A DNA stretch of 20,000 nucleotides from Nitrososphaeria archaeon (GTDB taxonomy: Archaea > Thermoproteota > Nitrososphaeria_A > Caldarchaeales > JAVZCJ01): contig JBGVSY010000006.1 in NCBI GenBank assembly GCA_041862235.1, forward strand, positions 21,597 through 41,596. The letters run 5' to 3'. Position numbers and translations under genes: made by a program. The notes below the pieces were generated by a model that saw only the letters and a program-made list of their open reading frames with translations, made no database searches and had not been told where the DNA came from. Of the stretch, positions 88-16,642 are shown in pieces (position 1 is the first letter of the stretch; every line of letters starts with the position of its first letter).

Positions 88-424
88 CTCGTCTTGGTGG
101 CGACAGTTCCCTTGGATCGATGCATACAGGTCTCGTTCTTGCCCTGGTTCGCTCCTCCGACGTGCTGATCACGGAGCGCCGCTGCCTCGCCTTAGGGCTG
201 CTCGCTCCCGCGCCTAACCCGATTCGGCGGGTAGGAGGCATCTTGACCTTCCCTACGGAAGACAAGTGTCTTTACATCGGCCCCTGTGGGCACGCGTTCA
301 CAGGAGCTGGCCAAGATGGGATCGAGGTGCATACATCTCTCCTCAGGTTGCTGACCCCCGCATTATGTCCCATTTCGGGTTCAGGGAAGGGCTGGCTCCC
401 CGGTCCTACCTGTCGCCACCGACG
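88..424 (-). ncRNA. Archaeal signal recognition particle RNA (7S/SRP RNA)
   Basis: Minus strand. The S-domain helix 8 signature is GGUUAGG-CGC-GGGA-GCG-AGCAGCC-CUAAG (GNRA tetraloop plus AGCAG asymmetric loop side), with adjacent helix 6 ACCCG-CCGAAU-CGGGU. The Alu-like 5' domain reads UAGGACCGGGGAGCCAGCCC..CCCUGAACCCGAAAUGGGACAUAAUGCGGGGGUCAGCAACC. The termini pair perfectly over 11 bp (GGUGGCGACAG near 420-410 with CUGUCGCCACC at 106-96). A TATA-like TTTAAAT lies just upstream. Exact ends are approximate. Confidence 0.9.
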
Positions 425-5462: not shown

Positions 5463-6644
5463 TCAAAGGTCGCCTGTCGTCATGATTTTGACCTTTGAGG
5501 GTTTCTTGGAGATTTCTCCTATTCTGGCGCCTATCAGGTAGAGCTCGTCGTTGCGCGTAGCCGCTAAGTCGATTAGTCTCTGGGTGACTACGCCGTCGAA
5601 AACCACGTACTTCGCGTTACTCATTTCTCCCAGCTTTTTCGCCAGCTCGCTAACCGGGGTTCTTGAGACCTCATCGAGGTTTTTGTCGTAGACCATGGCG
5701 AGAAGGCTTCCCTCCAAGGATTTAGCGGTCTCCACCAACTTCTGGGGGATACCAGGTTTGACTTCCTTGACCGGCGCTGCCTTCATCGCTTTCTTCAACT
5801 CCTTCACGGCGACAGCTTTCTCTAGGGCTTCCTCCATTTCGCGTTTGGTCAGTTCCTCGACTTCTTTTCCCTGAGGTGCACGGGCTACGTAGTCGATTTT
5901 GCTCTTCATCAGAAGCTCTTTGAGGATCAGGTCCCCCCCGTGGTCTCCATCTAGGAAGGCGGTTACCTTCTGCTTCCTGTGGGTGATCTCTTCGATGGTC
6001 TTAGGTACCTGAACGCCCTCCACCGCTATGGCGTTGTTGTATCCATACTTGAGAAGGTTGTTCACGTCTGCTCTGCCTTCGACCACTAGTAGATCTTGGC
6101 TTTCGTTCACGGTTGGCCCGGCTGGAAGCTTGTCAGGTCCGTACTCAATGACCCTGGCCTTGACCAATGCCTGTTCGATCTGGCGGAACACGGCGTCGTC
6201 TGTCGGTATCTTCTGCTGCTCCCAATCGTACAGAATCTCCTTAGCTCGCTTAGTGATCCTCTGTCTCTTCTCGACTCTCGCGTCTTCAATTTTCTCAATG
6301 GTGACCTTTGAGCCATAAGGCCCTACCCTGTCGACGCTTTCTATGATAGCCGCTACCAGAGCTGTCGTCGATCTGTCGAGGCTCGTTGGAACAACTACTT
6401 TTCCTTCGGTCTTCTTGCCTTGGGTCTTGACCTTTATCTCTATCCTTCCTATCCGGCCTGATTTCTGGAGGTCCCTGAGATCGAGCTCCGAGCTGAAGAT
6501 ACCCTCAGTTTAGCCTGTATGATGTGTTGCACATCCACACATTTGGCCGAAGAGAGCACCAACAACATCGGGTTTTTCGACAGGGCCATCCACATCTATC
6601 TTTGCATGAATTATGTACTTTGTAACTGGTTGACCAAACGTCAC
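5463..6644 (-). CDS. dnaG: Archaeal DnaG-like primase (Toprim), interrupted by a putative 33-nt intron at 6510-6542
   Basis: Exon 1 (GTG at 6644 down to 6543, 34 codons) encodes [34 protein letters not shown]. Exon 2 (6509 down to 5463) encodes [31 protein letters not shown]...[29 protein letters not shown]...[12 protein letters not shown]. Joined, these give a contiguous DnaG of 382 aa. The GAGGTGA Shine-Dalgarno overlaps the stop of the upstream gene. The ORF track only begins at 6191 because the in-frame TAA in the intron (6512-6510) is followed by about 106 codons with no ATG, GTG or TTG. Confidence 0.88.
6510..6542 (-). other. Putative archaeal BHB-type mRNA intron within dnaG (33 nt)
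   Basis: Minus-strand RNA is ...GGCCAA|AUGUGUGGAUGUGCAACACAUCAUACAGGCUAA|ACUGAGGG... The central 4-bp helix is GGCC (exon) with GGCU (intron). Each side is followed by a 3-nt AAA bulge cut AA|A. The inner helix is UGUGU(g)GAUGUG-CAA-CACAUCAUACA. Removal restores GGC CAA ACU GAG GGU = G Q T E G. The outer helix is imperfect (CUCUU/GAGGG after a 1x2 offset). Confidence 0.8.
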
Positions 6645-6650
6645 ACACAA

Positions 6651-7052
6651 TCACCTCTTGATTCTCTTTGCGAAATAAGGGTCTATGCTCTCAATCTCAT
6701 GCACACCGTTTCTGACAAGACGCTTCAGCCTTCTCCTGTAGGAAAGGTCGTGGCTAACGCCTATTTGTGAAAGGTATTTGGATATTCTCCCGCTAAGGAG
6801 TTCCCCTTCTCGATCGAAGTCTGTCAGGATAATTATCTTCCGGTTGACAAACTCCTCTGGGTTCACGGCGAGTATTTCTCTGTATCTTCTGAGTTGGATG
6901 ATACTCTTGTCTATGCCAAGGTTATTCAGGGATCTTTGGTCTCTCAATCCTTCAACTACTACCAGTGCTCCCTGCTCCGTTTCCTGCCGCAGGTCGGCTA
7001 CGATTTTCGCTACCTCTTCGTACGTGTCTTGAAGTGTCTTGTGAGTGAGCAA
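6651..7052 (-). CDS. Small Toprim-domain (primase-like) protein of the COG1658/UPF0292 type
   Basis: Toprim motifs GALVVVEGLRDQRSLNNLG and IIILTDFDREGELLSGRISKYL. It lies immediately upstream of dnaG. Confidence 0.75.
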   Translation of the reverse strand: MLTHKTLQDTYEEVAKIVADLRQETEQGALVVVEGLRDQRSLNNLGIDKSIIQLRRYREILAVNPEEFVNRKIIILTDFDREGELLSGRISKYLSQIGVSHDLSYRRRLKRLVRNGVHEIESIDPYFAKRIKR

Positions 7053-14628: not shown

Positions 14629-14928
14629 CCTTCATTCGAAACCTGTGGATGGATATCCCGCATAGAAGCCGCCAACTCGCCAGCACCCGTCTCCAGTCAG
14701 ATGAACGCTGCCAAGGACTCTGCATAACTGTTCCAAAGATCGATATGAGGACATAGATCGATCGCTGAAGAGTAATCACAGGTATTTCAGCTGACCGACA
14801 CCGACCTTTCGTTCGCCCCAAAGCGAAGGGGCTCCACGTCAGCGGCTTGTCATGCTCGGACAACGAGTTCGGCATACATGTGTCTTTCAATTGCGGGAGT
14901 GGCTTCTCTAAGATATTGGTGATCAAGA

Positions 14929-15047
14929 GCTGCCAGCACCCAGATTTCACGTGTGGTTTCCCACCACGCTAACGCCTGGGCGAACGGAGGCTTAGCTTCC
15001 GGGATCGGACGAGACCGGGCGTTTCCCTTCGTTCTATGGCCGGCAGC
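14929..15047 (-). rRNA. 5S rRNA (stand-alone)
   Basis: The minus-strand 119-nt sequence is GCUGCCGGCCAUAGAACGAAGGGAAACGCCCGGUCUCGUCCGAUCCCGGAAGCUAAGCCUCCGUUCGCCCAGGCGUUAGCGUGGUGGGAAACCACACGUGAAAUCUGGGUGCUGGCAGC. It contains the canonical CCGAUCCCGGAAGCUAAGCC core, and helix I GCUGCCGGC/GCUGGCAGC is closed with one G-U. A TATA-like TTTAAG lies about 25-30 nt upstream. Confidence 0.95.
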
Positions 15048-16390: not shown

Positions 16391-16480
16391 AACTACGTAT
16401 TAAGGCCTTCGATCGATCACGACAGCCATGAAGTATACAGGAAATGGGGACGGAGGGAATCCCGGCCACGCGACACGCAC

Positions 16481-16642
16481 ATGGCCTTCGAACCCTCGGC
16501 CTACGGGTCCCCCCAGCCGCTCCAGAACCTCGTCATCCCCCGAGACGTTCGGGGTCGGTTCATGGAGACCTACATTCTGGAGCCCGTCGCGGTAGACCTG
16601 TCTGCGCCACGTCCCTCGTCGTCGCTCCCCGCTCGAAAATAA
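16481..16642 (+). CDS. Possible 53-aa small protein, unknown function
   Basis: ATG-to-TAA ORF MAFEPSAYGSPQPLQNLVIPRDVRGRFMETYILEPVAVDLSAPRPSSSLPARK, with third positions mostly G/C. There is no obvious Shine-Dalgarno close to the ATG. Confidence 0.25.
   Translation: MAFEPSAYGSPQPLQNLVIPRDVRGRFMETYILEPVAVDLSAPRPSSSLPARK

Follow-up and report, generated by a model that had tools for sequence, protein, structure and literature searches.

A probable 33-nucleotide bulge-helix-bulge intron in the dnaG coding sequence of a Nitrososphaeria archaeon

Results

Organization of the dnaG locus

The window, which is the whole stretch of 20,000 nucleotides analysed here, was taken from contig JBGVSY010000006.1 (positions 21,597 to 41,596) of the Nitrososphaeria archaeon assembly GCA_041862235.1. 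The dnaG gene is encoded by the minus strand at positions 6644..5463, and is split at 6542..6510 by 33 nt with a terminal in-frame TAA. DnaG is a primase and a subunit of the RNA exosome. The gene can be divided into three segments:

6543..6644, minus strand: dnaG exon 1, 34 codons, start codon GTG 6644, similar to intronless DnaG
6510..6542, minus strand: predicted bulge-helix-bulge (BHB) type (HBh′) intron, 33 nt, AUGUGUGGAUGUGCAACACAUCAUACAGGCUAA
5463..6509, minus strand: dnaG exon 2, 348 codons and a stop codon

In the alignment, the GTG start at 6644 matches the ATG of a relative (L061). An alternative start, TTG 6650, adjoins the TGA of the upstream gene.

The insert reads ATG TGT GGA TGT GCA ACA CAT CAT ACA GGC TAA from 6542 to 6510 on the minus strand, with the TAA at 6512-6510, after which the DnaG reading continues in an unchanged frame. 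A previous sequence-only reading of this DNA had described the insert, and its frame and coordinates are confirmed here. The removal of exactly 33 nt results in a 382-residue DnaG in which the invariant FGQTEG motif is restored, as had been proposed. The product aligns without gaps to nine intronless homologues, with 56–62% identity and F-G-Q-T-E-G invariant, and in this alignment the N-terminal domain of DnaG is interrupted at its most conserved motif. The spliced protein scores 451.6 bits against the NCBIfam equivalog NF003108, above the cut-off of 300, and its full-length match and intact N-terminal motif agree with the curated definition of DnaG (Toprim primase/exosome subunit). The nearest full-length relatives are the DnaG proteins of Caldarchaeum (Aigarchaeota), with approximately 62% identity, every one of which is uninterrupted. 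No full-length close relative was found among 5.8 billion proteins, and a contig scan with the spliced protein identified only distant DnaGs of 38–53% identity (L007–L049).

If the sequence is read unspliced, translation terminates after 44 residues. The first in-frame ATG, GTG, or TTG after the TAA is GTG 6191, 106 codons further on, in agreement with the start-free stretch of about 106 codons noted earlier. In the NCBI assembly GCA_041862275.1 (contig JBGVSZ010000060.1), DnaG is annotated as a 345-residue protein starting from an ATC three codons past the TAA. The downstream open reading frames are 345, 298, 297, 287, or 242 residues long, depending on the lineage and gene caller, and this variation of the starts indicates that there is no conserved re-initiation site.

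Distribution of the insert and selection on dnaG

The insert is present at the identical codon, after CAA, and with a constant length of 33 nt in more than 30 contigs from NCBI, JGI, ENA, and Logan, including the NCBI assembly GCA_041862275.1, several JGI/ENA samples, and several Logan runs. The first insert-bearing contigs were reached through truncated DnaG relatives with 86–99% identity. A profile of the 46-residue N-terminal open reading frame, searched against 5.8 billion proteins, identified six clusters of 44–46-residue open reading frames, and the total rose to more than 30 with the contigs of these clusters and those from a DNA pattern scan. The alignment of close relatives, which had been suggested as a check, thus returned the same insert at the same codon. 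An assembly error had been named as grounds for rejecting the intron; however, the insert occurs in independently assembled contigs.

Seven sequence variants of the insert and 10 distinct 173-nt haplotypes were found. The variant of the window is AUGUGUGGAUGUGCAACACAUCAUACAGGCUAA, whereas L001 contains ..UUGGUGUGAAGUGCAU.. and L050 contains ..GGGUGUGAAGUGCAC.. at the corresponding place; additional variants are present in L051, L060, L061, and L067. Twelve of the 33 positions are variable, but the length never is. The peptide read from the 11 insert codons is unconserved among the variants, and the invariance of the UAA follows from its place within GGCU-AAA. The exons exhibit dN/dS ratios of 0.06–0.10 at dS values of 0.56–0.69 between lineages, which indicates strong purifying selection on both of them. 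In every complete copy, exon 2 is 1044 nt long and undamaged, consistent with the previous statement that the rest of the gene is intact.

The closest intronless relative, L091, has an identical junction sequence, TTCGGCCAA|ACTGAGGG. The insert-free junction had no match in JGI metagenome contigs, and thus neither an intronless allele nor a spliced cDNA contig was found there; since these are mostly DNA assemblies, the result is uninformative. A scan with the core pattern GGCCAAATGT..ACAGGCTAAA returned the dnaG copies and matches at chance level, and nothing else. Similarly, a covariance model of the 40-nt core detected no extra copy in the window or in approximately 170 kb of related contigs, and there is therefore no sign of a multi-copy or mobile intron family. 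A match in L075, L080, and L088 was considered as another intron and rejected. It is located in an intact 83-residue zinc-ribbon-like open reading frame, the removal of its 38 nt shifts the frame, and despite a perfect 6-bp outer helix it is probably coincidental.

Predicted RNA fold of the insert and its flanks

The MFE fold of positions 6565..6490 has a free energy of -28.8 kcal/mol and a z-score of -3.95, and none of 200 dinucleotide shuffles was equally stable. The predicted elements, all on the minus strand, are the following:

6545..6548: 5′ strand GGCC of the central 4-bp helix H in the MFE fold, in exon 1, followed by an AAA bulge
6512..6515: 3′ strand GGCU of helix H, in the intron, followed by AAA 6511-6509 (relaxed 3′ splice site)
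6516..6541: inner hairpin h′ of 11 bp, with one bulged G and the loop CAA
GGUGCUCUC (6560-6552) paired with GAGGGUAUC (6506-6498): outer exon-exon helix, 9 bp, MFE fold
6464..6594: predicted splicing platform, approximately 33 bp of interrupted exon-exon pairing with the BHB at its tip

In the MFE fold, helix H is exactly 4 bp long, as is required of the central helix of a BHB, and it is invariant in 10 variants. The AAA at 6544-6542 forms the strict 3-nt bulge expected of a 5′ site, between helix H and the 11-bp hairpin. The AAA at 6511-6509 is instead part of a 3×5 internal loop (UUC / AAACU), which becomes 2×4 in some variants. A strict hBHBh′ motif has a 3-nt bulge at the 3′ site, whereas here two to three extra nucleotides are unpaired before the outer helix. 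Because the 3′ AAA sits in the 3×5 internal loop, the motif belongs to the relaxed HBh′ kind and not to the strict hBHBh′ kind. The BHB fold suggested by the sequence-only reading was therefore reproduced in its GGCC/GGCU helix, inner hairpin, and 5′ AAA bulge, but not in a bulge of the same form at the 3′ site. A BHB is defined by its two-fold pseudo-symmetry, and an AAA positioned 3′ of each strand of a 4-bp helix has this geometry. The predicted cuts, AA|A, are located at 6543/6542 and 6510/6509, and any cut register within the AAA runs would give an identical mRNA. Relaxed motif classes are cut by (αβ)2 and ε2 EndA enzymes (PMC5829648).

The outer exon-exon helix had been regarded as the weak point of the fold. 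It is not weak: it contains 9 bp, and with the offset of a small internal loop its predicted extension reaches approximately 33 bp. In the consensus fold of positions 6594..6464, 97.8% of cells are paired, compared with 31–49% when the partners are slid, and the ~33-bp extension rests on invariant columns, without covariation. The exon-exon helix was not formed when the flanks of intronless homologues were folded.

A BHB-like fold on its own proves nothing, because such motifs are common by chance. A scanner that demands helix H, a 3-nt bulge, an inner helix no shorter than 5 bp, and some outer helix found 12 BHB-like motifs per strand of the window and 7–16 per shuffled strand. The predicted cut sites, however, are identical to the insert boundaries that were set independently by protein homology. 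From the scanner counts, the chance of such a motif at one given pair of positions is estimated at approximately 3e-6, i.e. 10/(20000 x 149).

Conservation of the fold among insert variants

In the seven variants, 98.2% of cells correspond to standard pairs, compared with 30–55% after the 3′ partners had been shifted by 1–3 columns. No variant differs in helix H, in either AAA triplet, or at the base of the hairpin. The variation is confined to the upper hairpin and the loop, and the pairing is kept. Pair 32-44 is A-U in two variants, G-U in four, and G-C in one; pair 35-41 is U-A (2), U-G (3), or C-G (2); pair 36-40 is G-C or G-U; pair 28-47 is G-U or A-U; and pair 29-46 is U-A or U-G. C45 is always paired, by either G30 or G31. 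Covariation among the seven variants was not significant relative to column shuffles, with no pair counted as changed on both sides, because every change goes via G-U. The changes in the hairpin thus represent structure-compatible variation and not proven covariation.

All lineages share the exon codons GGU GCU CUC UUC GGC CAA unchanged, whereas the neighbouring codons vary. Synonymous variation affects three of 20 codons in the segment around the junction and 140 of 291 in the rest of the gene (Fisher p = 0.0045, for a segment chosen post hoc), and this 20-codon segment has the lowest synonymous variability in dnaG. Each of the two variable sites beside the junction is either in a loop (ACN) or switches between G-U and G-C (GGU/GGC). 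Furthermore, the intron-bearing clade has a leucine whose CUC codon pairs with GAG, where the outgroups contain valine or isoleucine.

tRNA-Trp with two BHB introns

The sequence-only reading had also mentioned a BHB intron-bearing tRNA in the window, and it is indeed present:

16445..16616, minus strand: tRNA-Trp(CCA) with two BHB introns, intergenic, recovered by inspection
16576..16509, minus strand: canonical 37/38 intron, 68 nt
16486..16459, minus strand: non-canonical 59/60 (T-loop) intron, 28 nt

The 59/60 intron has the strict hBHBh′ motif GAGGG-UUCG-AAG-GCCA...UGGC-CGGG-AUU-CCCUC. ARAGORN and Rfam identified no tRNA in the window. ARAGORN recognised the tRNA-Trp at default stringency once the 28-nt T-loop segment had been removed by hand. 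With relaxed thresholds, the program listed 54 tRNAs, which were mostly spurious and were set aside. A common origin of the dnaG and T-loop introns was considered and rejected, as the shared UG-rich AUGUG.GUG is too low in complexity.

Non-canonical tRNA introns are typical of archaea with a heterotetrameric splicing endonuclease. This form of the enzyme has been reported in Thaumarchaeota, Crenarchaeota, and Aigarchaeota (PMC5829648), and in Caldiarchaeum subterraneum the heterotetrameric form occurs together with tRNA introns at non-canonical positions (PMC3082918). The two-intron tRNA-Trp lies outside dnaG and serves as contextual evidence for the splicing machinery.

Discussion

The insert is most readily interpreted as a BHB intron

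The 33 nt at 6542..6510 very probably constitute an archaeal BHB intron within the coding sequence of dnaG, as judged from sequence comparison and modelled folds. Several lines of evidence favour this interpretation. The deletion restores both FGQTEG and the gap-free alignment to intronless homologues, and the insert recurs, with an identical length and after the same CAA, in over 30 contigs that were assembled independently, with both exons under purifying selection. Helix H and the AAA triplets are invariant and the hairpin pairing is kept, while the encoded peptide is unconserved. The codons near the junction show suppressed synonymous change, and the BHB-like structure is also the fold of minimum free energy. 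Additionally, the tRNA-Trp of the same window contains a strict BHB intron at position 59/60, a sister lineage reportedly has a heterotetrameric endonuclease, and the introns of cbf5 are also relaxed.

The dnaG gene could alternatively be split, so that termination and re-initiation give a 44-residue N-terminal peptide and a C-terminal protein of about 345 residues, the latter initiated from a non-canonical start codon, for example the ATC annotated by NCBI, and the two assemble into a functional DnaG. That annotation, which begins soon after the TAA, agrees with such an arrangement, and selection on exon 1 is equally expected of a two-piece protein. However, the 106 codons after the TAA contain no ATG, GTG, or TTG, the first usable starts differ by lineage, and the break would disrupt the best-conserved N-terminal motif. 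Nor is a split gene expected to show an invariant GGCC...GGCU helix with an AAA on either side, pair-keeping changes in the hairpin, a variable 10-residue tail, or suppressed synonymous change on the flanks, and we consider it highly improbable. Stop-codon readthrough or translational bypassing, which would cross the insert with no need for RNA splicing, has a still smaller share of our belief. The insert keeps the reading frame (33 = 11 x 3) and contains a stable hairpin, and stable hairpins are frequent among recoding signals. Readthrough, however, would introduce 10 unconserved residues and one recoded position into the invariant FGQTEG. A hop similar to that of gene 60 fails because the only matched codons, GGC...GGC, land directly before the UAA, while CAA and UAA are unmatched. 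Both forms of recoding leave the symmetric helix-plus-AAA geometry unexplained. Split protein, readthrough, and hopping are, even when taken together, improbable.

The in-frame stop within an otherwise conserved gene, and the truncated open reading frames that gene callers produce from it, are also what would be expected if dnaG were inactivated by a small insertion or misassembled. Against this, the insert is shared by more than 30 contigs, which come from various samples and were built with various assemblers. No lineage has a damaged exon, dN/dS is 0.06–0.10 for dS values of up to 0.69, and the insert length is constant although 12 of 33 positions vary. The shared insert and the selection on the exons exclude pseudogene and assembly error for practical purposes, which makes them the least credible of the explanations. 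The preference of the sequence-only reading for splicing over a pseudogene is thus upheld, on computational grounds, by recurrence, dN/dS, and conservation of the BHB core.

Proposed mechanism of dnaG splicing

In the proposed BHB intron, the exon flanks of the pre-mRNA would pair as a long interrupted helix, the tip of which would present the 4-bp GGCC/GGCU with an AAA 3′ of each strand. EndA, which we expect to be a broad-specificity (αβ)2 heterotetramer in this lineage, would cut AA|A at both sites. An RtcB-type ligase would then join the exons into ...UUC GGC CAA|ACU GAG GGU... (FGQ|TEG), and the excised 33-nt intron would probably be circularised. The full-length 382-residue DnaG would be encoded by the spliced mRNA only, and the extended exon-exon helix may have a role in the splicing.

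A more speculative and rather unlikely extension is that the intron serves as a gate, which makes DnaG output dependent on EndA and RtcB, and that the exon flanks were reshaped as a substitute for the tRNA body. Such reshaping is possibly signalled by the change from valine or isoleucine to leucine (CUC opposite GAG), by the frozen synonymous sites, and by the ~33-bp exon-exon helix. If the gate existed, BHB introns in coding sequences would probably be more widespread in TACK archaea, masked as "N-terminally truncated" gene calls, of which the 345-residue DnaG of NCBI would be an example.

Significance

To our knowledge, protein-catalysed splicing of archaeal mRNA has comprised essentially one coding-sequence case, cbf5, and one 5′UTR case for more than 20 years. 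The dnaG intron is most likely only the second known BHB intron inside an archaeal protein-coding sequence. We found no prior report of it in the full-text literature searched, the coverage of which leaves out most subscription journals, so that an earlier description is possible. The novelty that had been left to be checked thus applies to the host gene and the lineage, and not to the mechanism, which is already known: the dnaG case is a new host gene and lineage for it. A second coding-sequence intron, in another essential gene and another lineage, would mean that mRNAs have been colonised repeatedly by the endonuclease/ligase pathway. The dnaG intron would provide a compact substrate (33 nt within a 131-nt platform) for relaxed-motif recognition outside a tRNA body. 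The locus also exposes a systematic annotation error, in which public pipelines call dnaG as a truncated protein of 242–345 residues with arbitrary starts. It suggests a simple recipe for screening, in which conserved genes are searched for short N-terminal open reading frames that terminate a few codons past a conserved motif.

Comparison with known introns

Splicing of cbf5 has been demonstrated by cDNA and in vitro cleavage. The intron of the cbf5 pre-mRNA of Crenarchaeota (Aeropyrum, Sulfolobus) was reportedly described by Watanabe in 2002, Yoshinari in 2006, and Yokobori in 2009 (the last being PMC2738675). It occurs in the coding sequence of Desulfurococcales and Sulfolobales, with relaxed motifs in use (PMC2738675). 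The cbf5 and dnaG introns are both small, of the size of tRNA introns, located in coding sequence, and often bordered by a relaxed BHB. Each is restricted to one clade and absent in relatives, and both host genes are RNA-associated housekeeping genes. The host lineages also share the heterotetrameric (αβ)2 endonuclease, which for dnaG is expected from sister lineages. Unlike crenarchaeal cbf5, dnaG hosts its intron in a Nitrososphaeria clade, where splicing is inferred. The dnaG intron also differs from that of cbf5 in its fixed, in-frame 33 nt and in a stop codon that forms part of the 3′ bulge.

Haloferax volcanii HVO_1309 has a BHB intron in its 5′UTR (PMC7714728; PMC10485636), and a 2023 review counted "at least two archaeal genes" spliced in this manner, with more probably awaiting discovery (PMC10485636). 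Like that of dnaG, the HVO_1309 intron is a short mRNA intron, of 46 nt, and a substrate of the splicing endonuclease, as is predicted for dnaG. It is excised as a circle, which for dnaG is a proposal. The HVO_1309 intron differs in its experimental verification and its position in an untranslated leader, where it breaks no reading frame. It is also euryarchaeal and is cut by a homodimeric α2-type enzyme (PMC10485636).

The non-canonical tRNA introns, such as tRNA-Trp 59/60 and those of Caldiarchaeum and Thermoproteales, are predicted to use the same machinery as the dnaG intron. The tRNA-Trp 59/60 and dnaG introns both have a 4-bp helix, three unpaired nucleotides after each strand, and an inner hairpin, with lengths of 28 and 33 nt, respectively. 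The scaffold in dnaG is a long exon-exon helix of coding sequence, whereas that of tRNA introns is the tRNA body, and the 3′ site of dnaG is relaxed, in contrast to the strict T-loop intron of tRNA-Trp. In eukaryotes, the IRE1/RtcB processing of HAC1/XBP1 similarly removes a short mRNA intron by protein catalysis independently of the spliceosome, with RtcB-type ligation and an altered protein as the outcome. The HAC1/XBP1 system differs in its IRE1 endonuclease, twin stem-loops, and regulation by stress, and its substrates are not homologous to that of dnaG.

Insertion site and gene calls of the dnaG with the putative intron

In the lineages that carry the 33-nt bulge-helix-bulge (BHB) insert, the putative dnaG intron, the codon at window positions 6552-6554 (minus strand), within GALFGQ, is CUC and encodes leucine, whereas all the intronless relatives examined have valine or isoleucine. 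Because CUC pairs with GAG of the downstream exon within the outer helix, the exon-exon pairing beneath the central helix, the substitution suggests that the DnaG protein sequence is adapted to the splicing structure at this codon. The closest intronless dnaG, that of L091, has 63% identity and the same junction nucleotides, TTCGGCCAA|ACTGAGGG. The target of the insertion (GGCCAA|AC) is therefore already present in a gene that lacks the intron, and GGCC, which forms half of the central helix, is ancestral exon sequence.

The NCBI annotation of the MAG contains a 345-residue DnaG (contig L006, 2036-3073, corresponding to window 6500-5463), which begins at a non-canonical ATC immediately past the TAA of the intron. 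Other pipelines call dnaG ORFs of 297, 298, 287, or 242 residues and a separate ORF of 44-46 residues. This pattern of a shortened DnaG and a separate small ORF could serve as a screen for additional mRNA introns.

The BHB core of the dnaG intron (GGCC AAA UGU...ACA GGCU AAA) recurs at positions 2875-2919 of contig L075, and also in L080 and L088; the three contigs share a JGI sample series with the dnaG-intron lineages. The match in L075 has a perfect 6-bp outer helix (AAGUCU/AGGCUU) and is located within an intact 83-residue ORF with a zinc-ribbon-like CxxC...CxxC arrangement, from which the removal of 38 nt would result in a frameshift and a 26-residue product. Although the outer helix is striking, the recurrence is probably a coincidence, since about 20 specified bases get chance matches in a very large collection.

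Gene neighborhood and tRNA-Trp introns

Additional features of the window:
98-418, minus strand: SRP RNA (Rfam RF01857, 124.7 bits)
6651-7052, minus strand: 133-residue small Toprim-domain protein, PRK04017-like "hypothetical protein"
14928-15047, minus strand: 5S rRNA (RF00001, 82.6 bits)
16445-16616, minus strand: tRNA-Trp(CCA) gene with two introns
16576..16509, minus strand: tRNA-Trp intron 1, 68 nt, position 37/38
16486..16459, minus strand: tRNA-Trp intron 2, 28 nt, position 59/60 in the T-loop, strict hBHBh' form

The small Toprim gene is directly upstream of dnaG, and its TGA abuts the dnaG start region (TGA TTG TGT GTG). All related contigs have the same gene order: TyrRS, small Toprim, DnaG, and Pelota (opposite strand). 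Housekeeping genes make up the rest of the window; besides Pelota and TyrRS, they encode an NcsA-like tRNA thiolase, PheRS alpha and beta, MetAP, DUF1512, CutA1, Hsp20, EamA, and HMG-CoA synthase.

The tRNA-Trp(CCA) gene was detected neither by ARAGORN (default and -i) nor by Rfam at the gathering or E<=1 thresholds, and would therefore be overlooked by standard annotation. Its 68-nt intron contains a box C-like element (GAUGACGA) and an imperfect box D-like element (CUGG). A C/D-box guide RNA is known to be encoded in tRNA-Trp introns of euryarchaea, and the elements in the window intron are reminiscent of it.
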